From a virus (taxonomy: Duplodnaviria; Heunggongvirae; Uroviricota; Caudoviricetes), in the IMG/VR virus record IMGVR_UViG_2703718819_000022, positions 1-6,145 of that record: 6,145 nt of DNA, one strand, 5' to 3'. The notes below the pieces were generated by a model. It did not search any database. It saw nothing but the letters and a program-made list of their open reading frames with translations, and was not told the DNA's origin. Made by a program: the position numbers and the translations under genes. Below are positions 1 through 6,145 of the stretch, piece by piece. The first letter of the stretch is position 1, and every line of letters starts with the position of its first letter.

Positions 1-405
1 ATGGATCAGGTCGTTGTTTTTCAAAAGATGTTTGAGCAAGTGAGAAAAGAGCAAAACTTCTCCTGGTTTTATTCAGAATTAAAACATCACCGTATTGCAC
101 ATTACATTTATTATCTGGCTACGGATAACATCAGAATTATTACTCACGATGACACGGTTTTGTTATTAAGAGGAACCAGGAACCTGTTAAAAGTTAGTAC
201 GACCAAGAACCCTGCTAAAATAAAAGAGGCCGCATTGCTTCATATTTGCGGAAAATCTACATTTCGGGAATACTGTTCAACACTAGCAGGCGCGGGCGTT
301 TTCCGGTGGGTTACTGATGTTAATCATAACAAACGCAGTTACTACGCCATTGATAATACGCTTTTATATATTGAAGATGTAGAAAATAATAAACCATTAA
401 TCTAG
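1..405 (+). CDS. hypothetical protein (134 aa), AT-rich; possible accessory/cargo gene; may be 5-prime truncated at the window edge
   Basis: ORF starts with ATG at base 1 and ends at TAG 403-405. Composition is visibly AT-rich compared with the rest of the window. No family recognised from the translation. Confidence 0.45.
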   Translation: MDQVVVFQKMFEQVRKEQNFSWFYSELKHHRIAHYIYYLATDNIRIITHDDTVLLLRGTRNLLKVSTTKNPAKIKEAALLHICGKSTFREYCSTLAGAGVFRWVTDVNHNKRSYYAIDNTLLYIEDVENNKPLI

Positions 406-639
406 CTAAAGTTGGATGCTTAAGAAATGCTGTTATATATAACTAATTTCACTTAACGCATTGATTTAATTAAATAATTTGCACTACAAAAAATGCCATA
501 AATCGCAAAATGACTACACCAGTGACTACACCGTTCGGTGCACTGTATGAAACAACGTGGAACAAATAGACACAAGAAATATACAGGCGGGTCATCTTTC
601 CAGGGGGAAGCGCGCTAATTCATGAGGGGCGTTAATGTC

Positions 640-1020
640 GATATGGGGATCCCCACCTACCGGAATTTTTTTCCGGTTAACTGTTAATCAGGCTGGTGGG
701 TTTTACATACCCTTGATCACCGTAATGATGATCCAGATCTGCACCTTTCCACCAATGGTGGAAAAGCCCACAGCAGGCCGCCCAGCCTCCACCAATGGGG
801 TAAAAGCATCAACCGTAACGAAAGTCGTTATGGTTGCCACCGATACCCCAAATTTGGGTATCACGAGTAAGCCCCAAAATCTGGGTGTTACTCTTACTAC
901 CCAAACTACGGGTAGTTTCCGTAGTTTCATGGTCGAGTTGCAGATCTGCAACTCCCCCATTAACCACAGGCGAATTTCCGCCTTCGGTCATTCCTTAATC
1001 ATCTGCGTAATCATAATGAT
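640..1020. repeat. dense array of short dyad-symmetric sequences (palindromes/hairpins), function unknown
   Basis: Seen directly: GGGGATCCCC 645-654; CCGGAA-T5-TTCCGG 660-676; CCACCA-A-TGGTGG 749-761 with degenerate copy near 787-799; AACGA-AAG-TCGTT 817-829; CCCAAATTTGGG 847-858 with degenerate copy near 872-886; AAACTACGG-N7-CCGTAGTTT 903-927; perfect 20-bp palindrome GAGTTGCAGATCTGCAACTC 935-954; AATCAT-A-ATGATT 1009-1021. Confidence 0.6.
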
Positions 1021-1023
1021 TAT

Positions 1024-1115
1024 TCAGCAAGCGCAATTTTGCGCTTTGCTTAAAGTTCAGCGAGTTACCGCGCCGACTTCCTCAAATTGAGGTTTCCGAA
1101 AATATCAACGGGTTA
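1024..1115. repeat. repeat block A: motif Y (GCGCAATTTTGCG...TCAGCGAGTTACCGCGCC, 1031-1074) followed by motif X (GTTTCCGAAAATATCAACGGGTTA, 1092-1115)
   Basis: Direct sequence comparison with block B at 1205-1277: motif X matches at 23 of 24 positions, motif Y shares two conserved sub-blocks separated by a diverged 13-nt spacer. Order of X and Y is swapped between the two blocks. Confidence 0.7.
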
Positions 1116-1139
1116 ACGATAAACTGGCGAGTAATTAAA

Positions 1140-1156
1140 CTACGAAAATTTCGTAG
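1140..1156. repeat. perfect palindrome CTACGAAA-A-TTTCGTAG (8-bp arms, 1-nt centre) lying between the two X motifs
   Basis: Read directly from sequence; reverse complement is identical apart from the central base. Confidence 0.7.
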
Positions 1157-1204
1157 CTCTGACTATCTGAAAGATAATCGTTGTTCCGGCCTCAGCCGTT
1201 GGCT

Positions 1205-1277
1205 GTTCCCGAAAATATCAACGGGTTAGGACAGAGCGCAATTTTGCGTTATCGGGAATATCAGCAAGTTACCGCCG
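1205..1277. repeat. repeat block B: motif X (GTTCCCGAAAATATCAACGGGTTA, 1205-1228) followed by motif Y (AGCGCAATTTTGCG...TCAGCAAGTTACCGCCG, 1235-1277)
   Basis: See block A. The last few codons of the 93-aa minus-strand gene overlap the end of this block. Confidence 0.7.
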
Positions 1278-1550
1278 TAATCGCTCCGGCTTCTTCCACT
1301 GGTACGTTATTTTTGCTTTTTCCCTGTACGTCTGCACGCGGCGACGGTAGGCCAGCATTTCAAGAACGCGGATCCGTATGTCGCGCATATCCGCATCATT
1401 AAGCTGGATACCATCACGGCGCATCACCTCCGCAACAACACGCACATAATTTTCGGCTGTCACGCTGTCCGGCTGCGTGGCCTGTTCGTCAGCCTGCTGG
1501 CTGATTCCGGCAACGCGACGGATTAATCGCAGTAGTTCGGCTTCTGTCAT
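1269..1550 (-). CDS. hypothetical protein (93 aa) adjacent to cos; candidate packaging-associated or regulatory factor
   Basis: The track ORF 1269..1748 begins at a GTG. The in-frame ATG at 1550-1548 is preceded by a GGGGG Shine-Dalgarno about 4 nt upstream (GATGGGGGCACA-ATG). Translation from that ATG (MTEAELLRLIRRVAG...) looks like a helical protein. No family recognised. Confidence 0.55.
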   Translation of the reverse strand: MTEAELLRLIRRVAGISQQADEQATQPDSVTAENYVRVVAEVMRRDGIQLNDADMRDIRIRVLEMLAYRRRVQTYREKAKITYQWKKPERLRR

Positions 1551-1583
1551 TGTGCCCCCATCGTTCTGATAGTCTGGTGTCGT

Positions 1584-1654
1584 CGGGTCCTTCCTGGAAT
1601 TATGGCCCGTTACGGGGCGGCGACCTCGCGCGTTTTCACTATTTATGAAAATTT
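1584..1654 (+). other. lambda-type cos, copy 1: cosQ-like GTTACG followed by cosN GGGCGGCGACCT (1615-1626), then CGCGCGTTTTCACTATTTATGAAAATTTT
   Basis: Near-identity to the phage lambda left-end sequence as I recall it (GGGCGGCGACCTCGCGGGTTTTCGCTATTTATGAAAATTTTCCGG), including the 12-nt cohesive-end sequence. Forms an inverted repeat with 2110-2181. Confidence 0.8.
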
Positions 1655-1663
1655 TCCGGGATC

Positions 1664-1782
1664 CATGTCCGGTTTCTCTGCAAGTTAACCATATGAAAAA
1701 TATAAAAACATGCTTTCCATGAACCGGACATGCGCAAAAAACAGACACTAAAACCGGACATCGTACCAGTTAACCGGAAGTG
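1664..1782 (+). promoter_or_regulatory. cosB-like region: one CATGTCCGGTT site (1664-1674), an AT-rich spacer (about 1690-1710), then inverted sites AACCGGACATG (1722-1732), AACCGGACATC (1752-1762) and AACCGGAAGTG (1772-1782)
   Basis: Repeats read directly. Their orientation pattern and distances from cosN (about +50, +108, +138) match the R3 / I1 / R2 / R1 layout of lambda cosB as I recall it. No terminase gene follows. Confidence 0.6.
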
Positions 1783-1955
1783 TGCAAAAATCACACGCAT
1801 TGCTGCGCGTGATTAACAATTTATCGGCTTTACTGTTCTGTATAGGCTGGGTGGCGTCATGCCGTAGCCGTTCTCCGTGCCAGCATGGAATAATCCGTAG
1901 TTACAGAGCGGTAAAGTTAAAAATCACTTTCTGTTACGCCATCAAATACGCGATA

Positions 1956-2100
1956 CAACAACCATGTGTTTTTACAAAACCATTTGATATCATTGAATTT
2001 TTTCACATTAATGACATCAAAATACATCGTAAGGTTGTTGTATTTATTTTATTTTTACCTTACTTATCAATTAGATATACCAAACAATTAAACAACAACC
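1956..2100 (-). repeat. second putative terminase-binding repeat set next to cos copy 2: ACAACAACC 1956-1964, GGTTGTTGT 2033-2041, ACAACAACC 2092-2100, with an AT-rich tract between
   Basis: Short repeats read directly. Relative to cosN copy 2 they sit at about +45, +110 and +190 on the minus strand with one site inverted. The motif is short, so chance occurrence is possible. Confidence 0.3.
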
Positions 2101-2109
2101 ACCCCCTCA

Positions 2110-2181
2110 AAAAATCTCATAAATAGCGAAAAACCGCGAGGTCGCCGCCCCGTAACGGGTCCATATGCCGGAAAGGACCCG
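2110..2181 (-). other. lambda-type cos, copy 2 (inverted): cosN GGGCGGCGACCT is the reverse complement of 2139-2150, preceded on the minus strand by GTTACG
   Basis: Minus-strand reading CGGGTCCTTTCCGGCATATGGACCCGTTACGGGGCGGCGACCTCGCGGTTTTTCGCTATTTATGAGATTTTTT aligns at roughly 85 percent (by eye) with copy 1 at 1584-1654, and is even closer to the recalled lambda sequence in the CGCGG-TTTTCGCTATTTATGA part. Confidence 0.75.
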
Positions 2182-2182
2182 T

Positions 2183-2206
2183 AAAAAAAAGCCGGATTTC
2201 TCCGGC
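2183..2206 (-). terminator. intrinsic terminator ending the capsid operon
   Basis: Hairpin GCCGGA-TTTC-TCCGGC (2191-2206) followed on the minus strand by T8 (plus-strand A-run 2183-2190), starting 7 nt after the stop codon at 2213-2215. Confidence 0.8.
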
Positions 2207-2212
2207 CTTGTC

Positions 2213-2626
2213 TCAGATGGTTTTCAGTATGCGATCGATGTCGCCGTCATCGCCCTGGTTTCTGCCATCGTACGCCATGCCAGCTGATACGGCTTGCGGG
2301 CTGTGCATGTCCATAAAGTTTTCAAAGGCTGCGGTAAGCTCTGGTGCAACCTTTGGGCGCTCCTGCTCTATGGTCATGTTCAGGATTTCACGAGCATTAT
2401 CGACGCTAATACATGGCACGTTTGCCATTGCACGTAACAGCGGCTGATAGTCGTTATGTTCATGAAGCGCCATAATCGCATCAGCGCGCGGCTTGTCCTG
2501 TTCTTCCAGTTTGTTGAGTTGATATACGGCCTCGTAGGTTGATAAACCTCTGTCAGCCATTGCCCGCGCTTCTGCTTTAAATTTACTCGCCAGCGGTAGC
2601 GCCATGATGCTTTCATTCGTTGCCAT
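2213..2626 (-). CDS. hypothetical protein (137 aa), last gene of the capsid operon
   Basis: ATG at 2626-2624 preceded by AGGGGA about 5 nt upstream; 12-nt gap after the gpD-like stop; followed immediately by the terminator. No family recognised. Confidence 0.65.
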   Translation of the reverse strand: MATNESIMALPLASKFKAEARAMADRGLSTYEAVYQLNKLEEQDKPRADAIMALHEHNDYQPLLRAMANVPCISVDNAREILNMTIEQERPKVAPELTAAFENFMDMHSPQAVSAGMAYDGRNQGDDGDIDRILKTI

Positions 2627-2638
2627 CGTTTCCCCTGC

Positions 2639-2974
2639 TTATCGCGCCAGCGGCTGAACGGATACGCCAGAACCCGCAAAGGCGGCGCATTTTTTCGCGT
2701 CAGTGTCGGCGCTCTCAGGCCAGTTTACGGCGGCGATATTAAATATCCCCGTCTTGTAACACTGTGCTGATTTCTGCTTTGACGTGTCCACGGGGTACGA
2801 AGTCAGATAAACAGCCTTGCCAGATTCCTGACCATCCCACGGCTTAAACTCGCCATTGTCCGCCAGCATCAGCGGGGTAAATTCCTGAATAACGCCAGCA
2901 TCAGCGGCAAAATGTACCAGCGTCGTGGATACCTGCTGACTGCCTGCAAATAACTCAATGTATGGAGTGTCCAT
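2639..2974 (-). CDS. head decoration protein, phage lambda gpD-like (111 aa)
   Basis: By-eye alignment with recalled lambda gpD: TPLMLADNGEFKPWDG vs TPLMLDTSSRKLVAWDG, and CYKTGIFNIAAVNWPESADTDAKKCAAFAGSGVSV vs [42 protein letters not shown] Shine-Dalgarno 6 nt upstream of the ATG at 2974. Confidence 0.85.
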   Translation of the reverse strand: MDTPYIELFAGSQQVSTTLVHFAADAGVIQEFTPLMLADNGEFKPWDGQESGKAVYLTSYPVDTSKQKSAQCYKTGIFNIAAVNWPESADTDAKKCAAFAGSGVSVQPLAR

Positions 2975-2986
2975 AGAATCCCCCCG

Positions 2987-4042
2987 TTAACCAATTTTGA
3001 CGGTAACAAATTTGCGAATATCTGCCGGAACCGGCTGCGGTGCGCTGTGCGTCTGCACGTACTCAATCGCCGGATCGCCGTCCTCAATCCAGTTTTTCGG
3101 GTAAAACATGTTTTGCGTTGCGCCCGTTCTTACCGCTTCCTGTTCCATAATCGCACCATAGGCCACCAGCCCTTTATTGTTGGTGTTGCCCAGGACCAGC
3201 AAATCAGGCTCAAGGAAATATTTTTCTGTGCCGTCGCTGTCAGTGTATTTGCCGGAATAGACGATAAGGGCCAGATCACCAAGATAGCCCTTAAAGCTCA
3301 CCACTTCGCCCAGGTTTTTACATGCCAGCTCTGCGGCGGATTCTGAACCACGGGAAAGATCGTACAGCTCACGGAATTTTTTAAAGCTGCGTAACATGCG
3401 CCATACATCAACGCCCATAATCATGACGTTGGCGGGGCAACCTGCCTGATCTGCGTATAGCTCAATGTCATAGATTGGATCGTGTATGTCTTTATCCTGC
3501 TCGGACCATTTTTTACCGTCGGCCTGCTCTATGATGTTTTTTTCCGGTATCTTCCAGTCGATTTCATAGCGCTCTATGCCTTCGCCCTCAATGATGTTTT
3601 TTCCGGTCGTTACCGCATTTACCGCCAGCCATTCCACGCGCGCTTTAATGGCGTTTATCTGGCGGCGCATGTTGCCAGTAATCAGGCGCATACGGCGGTA
3701 GGTAGGGTCGTTAAGCTGTGCCGGATCTTCTCCAGCCATGCGCATTATTGTTTTTAATGGATCGATTTCGTGTTTTGGCTTCATGTAGCCAGGGCGAATA
3801 ATGCTGGTTTCGTACCCTTTATCGCGCTGAACCAGGCTACCAACCATAGGCGAACAAAACGCCGACATAGTGACTTCTTCAATATCCAGGTTATCTAACA
3901 TGATGTCCTGTGTGTTGAATGTCGCCACGTTCGGGAAAAACAGCGCGGTAAACAGCGGACTGAATTTAAATTCCGCAATATCCTCGCGATTCAGGTACGC
4001 AAAAAGCTGGTTAGTGTTAAGTGCTATTGCTTTTACTGTCAT
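2987..4042 (-). CDS. major capsid protein, phage lambda gpE-like (351 aa)
   Basis: Full-length by-eye alignment with recalled lambda gpE (341 aa): EFKFSPLF / KFKFDPLF; PGYMKPKHEIDP / PGYVKPKHEVNP; EDPAQLNDPTYRRMRLI / EDPQNLADPAYRRRRII; LRSFKKFRELYDLSRGSESAAELACKNLGEVVSFKGYLGDLALIVYSGKY / FRSFKAVKEKLDTRRGSNSELETAVKDLGKAVSYKGMYGDVAIVVYSGQY; YPKNWIEDGDPAIEY..SAP / YPKNWVTTGDPAREF..SAP. GGGGGTGA Shine-Dalgarno; start overlaps the upstream stop as TAATG. Confidence 0.92.
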   Translation of the reverse strand: MTVKAIALNTNQLFAYLNREDIAEFKFSPLFTALFFPNVATFNTQDIMLDNLDIEEVTMSAFCSPMVGSLVQRDKGYETSIIRPGYMKPKHEIDPLKTIMRMAGEDPAQLNDPTYRRMRLITGNMRRQINAIKARVEWLAVNAVTTGKNIIEGEGIERYEIDWKIPEKNIIEQADGKKWSEQDKDIHDPIYDIELYADQAGCPANVMIMGVDVWRMLRSFKKFRELYDLSRGSESAAELACKNLGEVVSFKGYLGDLALIVYSGKYTDSDGTEKYFLEPDLLVLGNTNNKGLVAYGAIMEQEAVRTGATQNMFYPKNWIEDGDPAIEYVQTHSAPQPVPADIRKFVTVKIG

Positions 4043-4248
4043 TATTCACCCCCGTGAACCTGATTCATACCCAGCGCCGCGCGTAAATAGGCGCGTACCT
4101 GCCAGCCTGTTGACGGCTCAACCATCGCCAGCGGATCAAGTCCTGCCGCAATGCCTGCTTTTACGTTCTGCTGGTGGCGTTCCTTGAGCGCCTTCACGAT
4201 GTCGGGGCTTATGTACACCGAAACACCGCCTTTTTTCTCTTCAGCCAT
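4042..4248 (-). CDS. hypothetical protein (68 aa), first gene of the capsid operon, translationally coupled to the capsid gene
   Basis: ATG at 4248-4246 with AAGAGGA Shine-Dalgarno about 10 nt upstream; stop TAA overlaps the gpE-like ATG (TAATG). No family recognised. Confidence 0.6.
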   Translation of the reverse strand: MAEEKKGGVSVYISPDIVKALKERHQQNVKAGIAAGLDPLAMVEPSTGWQVRAYLRAALGMNQVHGGE

Positions 4249-4283
4249 AGTAAGAAATTCCTCTTTGACTTAAAAAATCATAA

Positions 4284-4299
4284 CTGGATGTTCATCCAG
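4284..4299. promoter_or_regulatory. operator-like dyad CTGGATG-TT-CATCCAG overlapping the predicted transcription start of the capsid operon
   Basis: Perfect 7-bp inverted arms with 2-bp spacer, read directly. Geometry is CTG-N10-CAG, the LexA-box geometry, but the interior is not the AT-rich consensus. Confidence 0.45.
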
Positions 4300-4304
4300 A
4301 TCTG

Positions 4305-4332
4305 ATTATAATCATGATTGCATTTTATGCAA
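4305..4332 (-). promoter_or_regulatory. sigma70 promoter for the capsid operon: -35 TTGCAT (4332-4327), 16-bp spacer, -10 TATAAT (4310-4305)
   Basis: Near-consensus hexamers read on the minus strand, about 50 nt upstream of the 68-aa ORF start. The -35 sits inside a second dyad TTGCAT-TTT-ATGCAA (4318-4332). Confidence 0.65.
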
Positions 4333-4410
4333 TGATGTTGAGTTGTGTTGCAAATTATGAAATGATGATCCCGATCATGTGTGTCAGTGCACAAAAAAAA
4401 CCTCATATGC

Positions 4411-4453
4411 AAAAGCCCGATAAGATGCCTCCTGTACTTATCGGGCTTTTTTT
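4411..4453. terminator. intrinsic terminator hairpin GCCCGATAAG-N12-CTTATCGGGC with T7 on the plus strand and T4 (then T8) on the minus strand; probably bidirectional
   Basis: 10-bp perfect stem 4415-4424 / 4437-4446, T-run 4447-4453, flanking A-runs 4411-4414 and 4393-4400. Confidence 0.7.
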
Positions 4454-4459
4454 GGGTAC

Positions 4460-4481
4460 AAAAAAGCCGGATTACTCCGGC
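4460..4481 (-). terminator. intrinsic terminator for the ssb / 90-aa transcript
   Basis: Hairpin GCCGGA-TTAC-TCCGGC (4466-4481) followed on the minus strand by T6 (plus-strand A-run 4460-4465), 7 nt after the stop at 4488-4490. Confidence 0.75.
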
Positions 4482-4487
4482 TGTTGA

Positions 4488-4760
4488 TTAGCTGTCTGGG
4501 TAATTACGCCATATTTCATCGCTTACACCATCTATACCCATTTCAGCATAAGTGCGATCTACTGCCTTTCTCAGGTCTCCGAAGTTATCCGGCGGCTCCG
4601 GTGGCTTCTGTGCCTTCCTGGAACATTCCAGCCGTCGCATCGTAACCTGATGCCGTTCCTTGTCTGTCTCCACCAGCAGCATGACTTCACCCCATCGCGC
4701 CGATGCCCTCCGGTAAAAGCCTTTTGCCTCGAGTTCCTCCGCTATGCGGTCATGTACCAT
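4488..4760 (-). CDS. hypothetical protein (90 aa) downstream of ssb
   Basis: The track ORF 4488..4880 begins at a GTG inside ssb. The in-frame ATG at 4760-4758 lies just after the ssb stop (4771-4773) and is preceded by GAGGGGG about 6 nt upstream, so the shorter product MVHDRIAEELEAKG... is preferred. Confidence 0.55.
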   Translation of the reverse strand: MVHDRIAEELEAKGFYRRASARWGEVMLLVETDKERHQVTMRRLECSRKAQKPPEPPDNFGDLRKAVDRTYAEMGIDGVSDEIWRNYPDS

Positions 4761-4770
4761 CGTCACCCCC

Positions 4771-5181
4771 TCAGAACTGAATATCATCACCGTAGGGGTC
4801 ATCGTCTCCCGCTGGTGGCTGATTACCCTGTGTGCCTGTGGTTTTGCGTCTGTTCCCGCCAGGACGTGCCGCACGGGCACTGATTACGCTGTCTGCAATA
4901 ACCTGATAACCCTGCCGCGTTTCCCCGTTCTGTCCGGTCCACTGGCTGACCTGCATCGTGCCGGATACGCTGGCAACGTCGCCTTTTTGATGTTTAGCCA
5001 GGAAGTCGGCCTGCTTACCAAATGCGATGACCGATAGCCATAACGTCGCCTGCCCATCCTGCGCCTGACTACATGGCAACGATACCGCCATACGTGCCAG
5101 CGTCATTGGTGTGCCCTTGCTGGTCTGTTTTACCTGCGGGTCGTCCACCAGCCGCCCGTAAGCTGCTATCTGTGCTGTCAT
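4771..5181 (-). CDS. ssb: single-stranded DNA-binding protein (136 aa)
   Basis: OB-fold-like core alignable by eye with E. coli SSB (WLSVIAFGKQADFLAKHQKGDVASVSGTMQVSQWTGQNGETRQGYQVIADSV vs [51 protein letters not shown]). Gly/Pro-rich linker and acidic C-terminal tip DDDPYGDDIQF (compare DFDDDIPF). GGAGAGG Shine-Dalgarno. Confidence 0.85.
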   Translation of the reverse strand: MTAQIAAYGRLVDDPQVKQTSKGTPMTLARMAVSLPCSQAQDGQATLWLSVIAFGKQADFLAKHQKGDVASVSGTMQVSQWTGQNGETRQGYQVIADSVISARAARPGGNRRKTTGTQGNQPPAGDDDPYGDDIQF

Positions 5182-5457
5182 GATTCCACCTCTCCGGTTT
5201 TAACGTTGATGGTTGTTACCTGTTCCGCTTCGGCAATCTCCCGCTCTGTCAGCGTGGCAAAATTTGCCGCCGTCGTGGTCATGAATGCGCTTATCAGTTC
5301 GGGATGTGCTTTCGCGTATCCTTCCCCCCGCGTGGCGGTCTATCGTTCTGATTGCCACCTTTAAAGCGTGCTCTGTCATGTCTAACGCGCGATATTTCGG
5401 TTCTGTTCTGTCTCTGCGTTTTTTGAGTGATTTGTTAAATCTTCCTGATGTGTGCAT
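5178..5457 (-). pseudogene. small gene immediately upstream of ssb, apparently split between two reading frames at a C6/G6 homopolymer (5324-5329)
   Basis: Frame 1 (track ORF 5200..5457, ATG at 5457) gives a plausible N-terminus (MHTSGRFNKSLKKRRDRTEPKYRALDMTEHALKVAIRTIDRH) and then low-complexity sequence. A second frame, open from 5339 to a TGA at 5178-5180, gives protein-like sequence (GEGYAKAHPELISAFMTTTAANFATLTEREIAEAEQVTTINVKTGEVES) and ends in an ATGA overlap with the ssb start codon. The two frames meet at the homopolymer. Confidence 0.4.
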
Positions 5458-5505
5458 TTTTATTTTTACCCTCGTGTTTAAAAAGTTTTAGGTTGTGGTG
5501 CACCT

Positions 5506-5729
5506 CCTCTACCTCTCTACCTAATCATCTTTCATGTCAGTAATGGCGCGGCTTTCAGATGGGTAGAGGGCTTTCGTGGCCCTCTACCCATCCTCTACCC
5601 GCCCCTCACAAACGATCTTAATCATGGTAGAAGAGGTAGAGAGGTTTTATTAGCCTTCTACCTAGCCCTCTACCCACTTATCATGTTGAATAATATGCGT
5701 TTATTTCATTCAGGTAGATGGGGTAGAGG
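5506..5729. repeat. iteron array, putative replication origin: at least 11 copies of CCTCTACC / GGTAGAGG in alternating paired orientation, separated by AT-rich spacers
   Basis: Copies read directly at 5506-5513, 5514-5521, 5562-5569 (inv), 5581-5588, 5592-5599, 5626-5633 (inv, degenerate), 5635-5644 (inv), 5654-5662 (degenerate), 5667-5674, 5713-5720 (inv, degenerate), 5722-5729 (inv). Includes a perfect 14-bp-arm inverted repeat GATGGGTAGAGGGC-N7-GCCCTCTACCCATC at 5558-5592. Lies directly after the C-terminus of the gene at 5744..6145. Confidence 0.7.
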
Positions 5730-5743
5730 GCTTTTACAAAAAA

Positions 5744-6145
5744 TTATAAAAACGCGTCACAATCATCAGTTGTAATTGCGTTGGTCTGCGTTACTCCCTT
5801 AACTCTCCGCGTAATATATTCATGTCCGTAAACTTTTGCCGCTGGCTTCATGGCCTTGCTGAACTCAGCCACGTTTAGCGGTTTGCTCCTGCCTGCGTAT
5901 GCCATAAACGCCAGATAGACGCGGTAAAGGCTGTTTCTGGTCGTGTACTTCACTGAATCGCCACCGCCGCCCATCATCAGGCCGCGTGCTTCCTCCAGAA
6001 AATTCAGGAACTGGCAAAACTCAATAACCGGATCCGTCTGTTGCTTTATTGCCAGAGCTTCATCACCGTCGCGCTGTTCCAGTAATAAAGCCCGTGCCTT
6101 TTCAGGGTCGGCAAAATTAGCCAGCAAGCGACGGATAATTACGGG
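5744..6145 (-). CDS. C-terminal fragment of a larger protein running off the right edge; putative replication initiator (primase/Rep-like) by position next to the iteron origin
   Basis: The reading frame is open to the window edge: the track start at 6127 is a TTG and the codons upstream of it (PVIIRR) continue in frame to base 6145. Stop at 5744-5746 immediately flanks the iterons. Function is inferred from synteny only. Confidence 0.5.
   Translation of the reverse strand, partial: PVIIRRLLANFADPEKARALLLEQRDGDEALAIKQQTDPVIEFCQFLNFLEEARGLMMGGGGDSVKYTTRNSLYRVYLAFMAYAGRSKPLNVAEFSKAMKPAAKVYGHEYITRRVKGVTQTNAITTDDCDAFL

Follow-up and report, generated by a model that had tools for sequence, protein, structure and literature searches.

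The DNA analyzed here (the window) is a stretch of 6,145 nucleotides, positions 1 to 6,145 of the IMG/VR virus record IMGVR_UViG_2703718819_000022, and it is the right end of an EcCICFT073-like satellite of Escherichia coli, a phage-inducible chromosomal island (PICI). The subject of this report is a segment of the window that is saturated with short palindromes, at positions 640–1020 and beyond. It is the non-coding terminal variable region of the E. coli PICI, between the last conserved open reading frame (ORF, 93 aa) and the integrase arm, and it constitutes a real, conserved but plastic, unannotated element of the mosaic palindromic repeat kind that is specific to PICI ends. From the analysis of its architecture, the region is tentatively explained (with a probability of about 0.35) as an architectural or boundary spacer beside attP that would be bent by integration host factor (IHF), would be prone to form hairpins or cruciforms, and would act at the DNA level.

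Eight distinct perfect dyads were found within positions 640–1020, or 14 hits when nested ones are included (arms of at least 5 nt and a centre of at most 4 nt). Dinucleotide-preserving shuffles of the same segment gave 2.0 ± 1.7 dyads, and none of 1000 reached the observed number. With arms of at least 6 nt, 10 dyads were observed versus 0.57 in the shuffles. Sliding 380-bp windows over the coding neighbours contain 1–4 dyads each. A density far above that of coding DNA had been claimed in an earlier sequence-only reading of the window, and the shuffle test bears this claim out. The excess is not confined to 640–1020 and runs rightward to ~1270; the entire non-coding stretch contains 15 dyads versus 3.1 ± 1.6 in shuffles, none of which reached 15 in 100 trials. 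Other non-coding stretches of the same island (1521–2090 and 5321–5700) contain 1–2 dyads per 380 bp. Palindromes are in excess across the family as well, and 19 of 35 variants lie above all 100 of their shuffles. In seven of the eight dyads in the window, the symmetry persists to 2 nt or less from the centre. The palindromes are listed below; the first four had been quoted in the sequence-only reading and were all found where it had placed them, and the remainder are additional.

644–655, palindrome TGGGGATCCCCA
847–858, palindrome CCCAAATTTGGG
935–954, 20-bp palindrome GAGTTGCAGATCTGCAACTC, inside module M
1009–1021, palindrome AATCAT-A-ATGATT, inside spacer S1
677–687, palindrome TTAACTGTTAA
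746–764, 19-nt palindrome TTTCCACCAATGGTGGAAA, within an ant/rha gene fragment
816–830, palindrome TAACGAAAGTCGTTA
903–918, palindrome AAACTACGGGTAGTTT

Degenerate direct copies 30–40 bp apart had also been described, and such pairs are present at 748–767/788–807 (40 bp apart) and 846–862/873–889 (27 bp apart). A composition switch had been placed near 640. The GC fraction rises from 0.345 at positions 401–600 to 0.525 at 601–800, with the step near 600–640; the switch falls at ~640 because the AT-rich integrase arm sequence gives way there to the palindromic mosaic.

An ORF on the plus strand (635..1090) spans the palindromes of positions 640–1020. It is open for 151 codons and begins with an ATG after GAGGGG, and the sequence-only reading had called its product odd and doubted that it is a real gene. 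In the homologous loci L002, L035, L045, L082, and L084 (compared sequences are denoted by L numbers), residues 1–41 and 52–151 are located in different frames, and the longest open stretch of the ORF in homologues is ~56–115 aa. An 81-nt segment of the window corresponds to a 35-nt segment in the O26 island, a difference that is no multiple of three. No Pfam or PHROG match was obtained for any ORF of the region, and the PGAP/RefSeq annotation of related genomes places no gene under it. The search for homologues that conserve the 151-aa protein was thus negative and the non-coding reading stands; ORF 635–1090 is, as judged from these comparisons, a chance open frame.

The anatomy of the region was obtained from a comparison of 51 de-replicated versions (44 from 80 IMG/VR loci fetched via the 93-aa gene, six other fetched loci, and the window), among which modules are present, absent, duplicated, or re-ordered. 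A recurring 48-nt unit reads on the minus strand as (GGCG)CGG-TAAC-NNN-YTGATATT-linker-[stem / A/T centre / stem′]. The head of the unit is conserved in sequence and is followed at a fixed distance of 29–30 nt by a dyad with GC arms and an A/T centre. Four units are found in the window and 0 to 7 in other islands. The modules are given here from the 93-aa gene toward the integrase arm.

1224–1271, minus strand, unit 1, starting at the TAA stop codon of the 93-aa gene; dyad CGCAAAATTGCG
1181–1228, minus strand, unit 2, with a perfect IHF 13-mer in its head (1216–1228, plus strand); dyad CAGCCAACGGCTG
1116–1180, spacer S2, with hairpins AACTACGAAAATTTCGTAG (1138–1156) and GACTATCTGAAAGATAATC (1161–1179)
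1068–1115, minus strand, unit 3, with head TAACCCGTTGATATT and perfect IHF 13-mer TATCAACGGGTTA at 1103–1115 (plus strand); dyad CCTCAATTTGAGG
1020–1067, minus strand, unit 4, with degenerate head TAACTCGCTGAACTT; dyad AAGCGCAAAATTGCGCTT
995–1027, spacer S1, an AATCAT / ATGATT / ATGATT triple that includes the palindrome at 1009–1021
969–982, dyad GGCGAATTTCCGCC, which is GGCGGAATTCCGCC in other islands
837–958, minus strand, module M (121 nt), with four hairpins including the 20-bp palindrome at 935–954 and GATACCCCAAATTTGGGTATC at 842–862
810–836, hairpin CAACCGTAACGAAAGTCGTTATGGTTG, with a conserved position that is G.T on the plus strand and A.C on the minus strand
743–786, plus strand, 44-nt ant/rha gene fragment encoding FPPMVEKPTAGRPA, with a decayed second copy at 788–807
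692–699, plus strand, Chi site GCTGGTGG, kept in almost every variant of the region

The internal units repeat the last ~10 nt of the 93-aa gene (GGCGCGGTAAC), which argues that the array grew by duplication of the gene end together with the hairpin downstream of it. Of the fetched loci, 80 contain module M at an identity of ~93% or more, and its flanks there are of at least three kinds. The 280-nt core around module M is 97–99% identical where the 93-aa gene is only 86–92% identical, and many islands are without this core. The segment at 743–786 is a gene scrap and not a gene. It is 86–89% identical to the ant/rha gene of SSU5-like phage-plasmids, and palindrome TTTCCACCAATGGTGGAAA is also present in SSU5. 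In the Salmonella phage SSU5 (L181), the same 44 nt are located at ~nt 401–444 of the ant gene SSU5_093 and contain a 23-bp perfect palindrome, CTTTTCCACCAATGGTGGAAAAG, in coding sequence; its occurrence there by chance is unlikely.

Two further variations of the zone were observed. Another Chi site directly follows the first unit in several island variants. In L027, L064, and L020, four phased GTGAC repeats (~11-bp spacing) appear in place of the units, ~100–200 nt after the 93-aa gene, and the gene strand of these islands also has a canonical intrinsic terminator (GACGTGRCCAACGTCATTTTTT). The variant in the window has neither the terminator nor the GTGAC repeats.

Palindromy is maintained in the region. 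In 71 of the 82 unique units, the dyad centre is located at one of three adjacent positions, 29–30 nt from TAAC. At stem positions 3–6 from the centre, 276 of 284 cells (97%) are Watson–Crick pairs, with only 3 G.T (~1%) and 1 A.C. Each stem position is occupied by 2–4 pair types (e.g., GC 41, CG 21, AT 4, and TA 3), and the paired fraction of the stems is 0.87 compared with 0.52 in a partner-permuted control. Stepwise compensation appears in orthologous comparisons as the series GCGC..GCGC, GCTC..GCGC, GCTC..GAGC and the series GATACCC/GGGTATC, GATACCC/GGGGATC, GATCCCC/GGGGATC. The dyad CCTCAATTTGAGG of unit 3 corresponds to CCCCCATTGGGGG in such a comparison. All three arms of spacer S1 co-vary, AATCAT/ATGATT/ATGATT in the window being GGTCAT/ATGACC/GACCAT in other islands.

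On the plus strand, the unit head reads AATATCAR-NNNG-TTA, and 35 of the 82 heads are perfect IHF 13-mers (WATCAANNNNTTR), with the variable head positions falling on the Ns of the IHF consensus. All three of the perfect IHF 13-mers in the 6.1-kb window are located within 428–1270, and 0.32 are expected in the whole window.

The sequence-only reading had proposed att arm sites or another array of protein-binding sites for the palindromic segment. This proposal holds to the extent that the region borders the att arm and contains consensus IHF sites, but only 428 to ~640–700 qualifies as an arm. Adjacency to the core, direct repeats, an IHF site, and co-variation with att type were all found for that interval, whereas the mosaic at 700–1270 does not track att type. 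The arm contains the following features.

428–445, island/chromosome junction (att core side); homology to other PICIs begins at 428
454–466, minus strand, perfect IHF 13-mer AATCAATGCGTTA (consensus match), in the integrase (P-type) arm beside the core
511–532, plus strand, two direct repeats TGACTACACC (GGTGTAGTCA on the minus strand), putative integrase arm-type sites, kept in nearly all island variants
644–687, widely conserved distal arm end, with TGGGGATCCCCA at 644–655, CCGGAATTTTTTTCCGG at 660–676, and TTAACTGTTAA at 677–687

The sequence of the AT-rich arm is common to nearly all variants. L082 and L035 depart from the window to the left of ~640, and the clpS-type island L006 departs at the same point. 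To the left of the junction, a DUF1398 gene (1–405) is located where other genomes carry tqsA, phoQ, or clpS. A DUF1398 (ydfO/ybcV-like) gene, as present in 1–427, is typical of lambdoid prophages, and the junction between DUF1398 and the island was found in no complete E. coli genome of the collection. The satellite may have inserted inside a prophage, and helper-embedded satellites are the subject of a preprint (10.1101/2022.07.18.500453).

The prototype to which this island is related is EcCICFT073, and CFT073 matches positions 459–6145 of the window at 91.6%. All of the island genes are on the minus strand. The order of host flank, att junction (428), AT-rich arm, palindromic zone, and 93-aa gene is the same in CFT073-type islands (cos and capsid genes), in capsid-forming PICIs with their own terminase (O26 strain 11368), and in ClpP–MCP-fusion PICIs. 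The layout recurs at four insertion sites (tqsA, phoQ, clpS, and a fourth), and the 93-aa ORF always precedes the mosaic. The region was matched in 1349 (megablast) to 1561 (blastn) of 5426 complete E. coli genomes, at a median of 1 and a maximum of 6 places per genome, always at PICI ends. A scan of genome contigs for relatives in other species yielded one Shigella locus only, and the plasmid matches are limited to misassembled or excised PICIs and to the 44-nt ant fragment.

In a 10.79-kb circular record (L184), the 93-aa gene, 721 nt of non-coding sequence, and int are arranged on one strand. The region in the excised circle is therefore the spacer from the last late gene to attP-int, directly upstream of attP and int and on the same strand. 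This record (NZ_CP148328.1, 10,790 bp) was deposited as a non-mobilizable plasmid and is a complete PICI in circular form with genes for int, alpA, primase, a ClpP–MCP fusion, DUF1441, and the 93-aa protein. It is probably an excised satellite caught by the assembly and a useful attP reference.

In the explanation preferred here, IHF would bend the unit heads and the dyads would form hairpins or cruciforms flanking attP, as in clusters of repetitive extragenic palindromic (REP) sequences and bacterial interspersed mosaic elements (BIMEs) with IHF sites. In cruciform kinetics, extrusion is easiest for sequences that combine GC arms with an A/T centre. Such a spacer may shape or insulate the recombination region, and it may buffer transcription between the last operon and attP-int in the circle, and toward host genes when the island is integrated. 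Template-switch correction of the arms, together with selection, probably keeps the palindromes perfect; template switching was previously described to create and maintain hairpins (PMC8794818).

Several observations weigh against this explanation. The units are dispensable, and some islands have none (L064 type). The CFT073 variant is without significant palindrome enrichment (4 vs 2.5), and EcCICFT073 was experimentally demonstrated to be mobile (PMC6739421). The pattern used to select the units fixed part of the head, and the head conservation is partly built in. The IHF heads are identified by consensus match, and their copies are related by duplication and not independent. Relative to the A-tract of the lambda H′ site, the A/T centre of the unit is displaced by ~5 nt away from WATCAA. 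Where only one side of a stem in module M has changed, the result on the minus strand is mostly G.U (24 cells vs 3 A.C). Transcription must also cover at least part of the region, given that unit 1 starts at a stop codon and no terminator was found before att, which leaves room for RNA-level roles.

It is possible, although doubtful, that the region functions as RNA, namely as the transcribed 3′ trailer of the last operon and as a leader into attP-int in the circle. The stem-loops would block exonucleases, attenuate or block Rho-dependent termination, or yield small RNAs, and module M may be a discrete non-coding RNA. The common minus-strand orientation of the island genes is consistent with this proposal, as are the start of unit 1 at the 93-aa stop codon with the first hairpin 21–37 nt downstream and the prediction of no terminator between that stop codon and att in the window. 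The minus strand also folds better (−255.8 kcal/mol, z −14) than the plus strand (−228.8 kcal/mol, z −6.7), and the G.U-type changes in module M are accompanied by a consensus fold of −44 kcal/mol. A canonical intrinsic terminator is found on the gene strand within the zone of some variants.

Other observations weigh against it. Among 80 unique one-mismatch hairpins, 15 would have G.U if the minus strand is the RNA and 17 if it is the plus strand, and wobble-type mismatches thus have no overall strand bias. The unit stems are almost strictly Watson–Crick, the conserved mismatch of hairpin 810–836 is A.C in the minus strand and would be G.U in the plus strand, and many dyads are palindromic through the would-be loop. 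Across the family, palindromy into the centre is weaker than in the window, at 39% compared with 32% in shuffles. None of the Rfam 15 covariance models matched positions 400–1300 even at E ≤ 1, and no tRNA or tmRNA was found in the region with ARAGORN. RNAalifold assigned module M a covariation term of only −0.61, two of its pairs being compensated (2), and the module is not preceded by a conserved promoter in the contexts where it occurs. The suggestion in the sequence-only reading of a discrete, highly structured RNA is therefore not sustained by the Rfam search, the covariation term, and the mismatch counts. Because of the near-strict Watson–Crick stems without strand bias and the IHF-consensus heads, a DNA-level element is slightly favoured over a structured RNA, and this preference is not decisive.

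A neutral origin is likewise doubtful. The region would then be a scar or stuffer, functionless DNA from duplicated 3′ ends of the 93-aa gene and scraps of phage genes, in which palindromes arise or are perfected by template switching and the array length drifts or tunes the genome size for a small capsid. The observations given the most weight in its favour are the dispensability of the units (0–7 copies) and the mobile but palindrome-poor CFT073 island (PMC6739421). Modules come and go between islands in which the flanking gene is 86–92% identical, the internal units are copies of the gene end (GGCGCGGTAAC), a 44-nt ant/rha fragment is embedded among them, and Chi sites favour recombination. 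Stems that are strictly Watson–Crick, without strand bias, and frequently perfect up to the centre are what template switching is expected to leave (PMC8794818). The greatest weight against neutrality is given to the other non-coding stretches of the island, which are palindrome-poor, and to the spacing from head to dyad, which stays fixed across strongly diverged unit types in which the head is more conserved than linker and stem. In addition, module M is 97–99% identical where the neighbouring gene has diverged to 86–92%, and a size-limited satellite is expected to shed useless DNA.

A bolder proposal, considered improbable, is that the units and module M are an undescribed class of satellite-specific, cis-acting non-coding element. 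Such an element would function in the excised circle between the late operon and attP-int, where it would control integrase expression or intasome assembly through IHF bending and hairpin or cruciform formation, or would yield a satellite non-coding RNA, and it would evolve rapidly by Chi-stimulated shuffling of modules.

It is quite unlikely that the array is a set of cis sites for the 93-aa protein. By analogy with a centromere or a recombination directionality factor, the protein would bind the unit heads beside its own gene and assemble a nucleoprotein complex adjacent to attP. The gene and the array are always adjacent, and the protein is basic, entirely helical, and equipped with a tail rich in Arg and Lys. 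It is limited to satellite-like elements, with no homologue found by tblastn in 50,697 phage records. However, no DNA-binding fold or family was detected, and a PDB sequence search, Pfam, and a Foldseek comparison of the AlphaFold model (pLDDT 71, three helices) with the PDB provided no informative match. L056, L064, and L020 have the gene without units, Tandem Repeats Finder (TRF) found no identical iterons, and the dyad sequences differ such that a single sequence-specific binder cannot read them. Finally, it is very improbable that ORF 635–1090 encodes a real 151-aa protein, since its GAGGGG-preceded ATG, its 151 open codons, and a resemblance of fifteen residues to an Ant/Rha motif are opposed by the displaced frames in five homologues, the inter-island indels (81 vs 35 nt), and the missing Pfam, PHROG, and RefSeq counterparts.

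The region was compared with known systems. Like REP/BIME clusters, and especially BIME-1 (RIP/RIB), it is a mosaic of short imperfect palindromes and linkers with interleaved IHF consensus sequences; both are extragenic at an operon 3′ end or between converging genes, non-coding, and variable in copy number among strains. The combination that marks BIME-1/RIP, palindromes with IHF consensus sequences in extragenic positions at operon ends, was found here, with IHF assigned from the consensus match. The roles described for REP/BIME are binding of IHF and gyrase, protection of mRNA 3′ ends, and attenuation of transcription (PMC2817692, PMC3479197). Unlike those elements, the region has shorter dyads (arms of 4–10 bp), each different in sequence, has no associated RAYT transposase, and is confined to att-proximal PICI ends without chromosomal dispersal (median of 1 place per genome). 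The REP consensus (≤3 mismatches) was not found in 400–1300, and its count over the whole window is at chance level. The region would work most like REP/BIME clusters with IHF sites, yet it fails their defining tests.

The interval from 428 to ~640–700 resembles the P arm of a lambda-type attP in being located beside the att core away from int, in being AT-rich, and in having an IHF consensus beside the core and direct repeats whose conservation follows the integrase type. The mosaic differs from a P arm in that it extends to ~840 bp from the junction, well past any known arm, consists of optional and shuffled modules, and is common to islands with diverged arms (clpS-type L006). In the centromeres sopC of the F plasmid and parS of P1, repeats of ~43–48 bp with a small inverted repeat are located just downstream of a small gene, and parS contains an IHF site. 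The units are of similar size, with a dyad downstream of a small gene and an IHF consensus, but the repeats are non-identical, the dyads differ, and there is no ParA/ParB-like gene. A partition site, as suggested in the sequence-only reading, is thus not supported, with no identical iterated sites (TRF), no Par genes, and a satellite that integrates.

The EcCICFT073 system of cos1/cos2 and RppA (PMC6739421) belongs to the same island family, and both cos sites are located near the region in the window. The palindromic zone is unlike cos in that it is separated by the 93-aa gene, includes no part of cosQ, cosN, or cosB, and is also present in capsid-forming PICIs with their own terminase. A cos site was rejected, with cosN at 1615–1626 and the inverted copy at 2110–2181 both outside the region. 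An integron attC array was rejected since each unit has a single TAAC-containing head with no inverted partner (R″/R′) and there are no cassette ORFs between units, and a CRISPR array since TRF found no regular identical repeats. A P4-type crr was rejected because the iteron CCTCTACC is located only at 5500–5740 (13524–13747 in L001) and not in the region. An oriT or other plasmid similarity was rejected since only PICI-derived records and the 44-nt ant fragment match. The reading of the dyads as Fis sites was dropped after inspection by hand (12–14 bp compared with a 15-bp Fis core). The reading as a first-injected DNA end was also dropped, as the region is near the last-packaged end only in the CFT073-type layout and not in capsid-forming PICIs. 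Clustering of GATC/Dam sites is not significant over the window. A sigma-70 promoter scan returned one weak plus-strand match (702–729) and none toward int. A search of the literature for the region, its sequence, or PICIs together with palindromic DNA produced no description, including in PMC6739421 and 10.1101/2022.09.08.507074.

Virulence and defence genes are mobilized by PICIs, a widespread group of satellites that is mapped one gene at a time. Such maps leave 400–850 bp next to attR blank, though this DNA is present in about a quarter of complete E. coli genomes. If the array is functional, a cis-acting layer would be added to the control of integration, excision, or int read-through, and the region would be a tractable case in which selection on DNA hairpins can be separated from template-switch self-repair of palindromes. 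A neutral region would be a clean natural example of palindromes that accumulate and stay perfect without selection, and annotation pipelines should then not call chance ORFs within it. The region would be relevant in satellite biology and for testing selection against template switching, and it does not overturn current understanding.

The remaining features of the island are as follows.

>5744, minus strand, primase (P4-family)
2213–5181, minus strand, SSB, PerC, lambda E-like capsid protein, D-like decoration protein, and a 137-aa ORF
1269–1550, minus strand, 93-aa ORF (phrog_1561, function unassigned), basic and with three predicted helices, a context gene outside the palindromic zone
1615–1626, lambda-type cosN GGGCGGCGACCT

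A second, inverted copy of cos is located at 2110–2181, and 1584–1655/2110–2181 is a 72-nt inverted repeat that is 83% complementary. The two cos sites are the cos1/cos2 already described for EcCICFT073 (PMC6739421). The cos pair encloses an AT-rich, ORF-less 454 bp where CFT073 has rppA (144 aa). Only a 22-aa C-terminal remnant of rppA is found in the window, in inverted orientation (1846–1911), and the island therefore appears to be without a functional Rpp. The C-terminal part of a head-maturation-protease PHROG is weakly matched (E 7e-10) by the 137-aa ORF (2213–2626, minus strand, phrog_1999), which may be a scaffold-like or protease-derived capsid-size factor.

About 11 iterons (CCTCTACC/GGTAGAGG) in both orientations are located at 5500–5740, just downstream of the P4-family primase gene. 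This is the sole such cluster in the island and presumably its replication origin. Six Chi sites are present in the 6.1 kb, three per strand, at 692–699(+), 3163–3170(−), 4170–4177(+), 4670–4677(−), 4811–4818(+), and 5145–5152(−), compared with 0.17 expected from shuffles (maximum of 2 in 200). This enrichment could shield rolling-circle or linear DNA from RecBCD.

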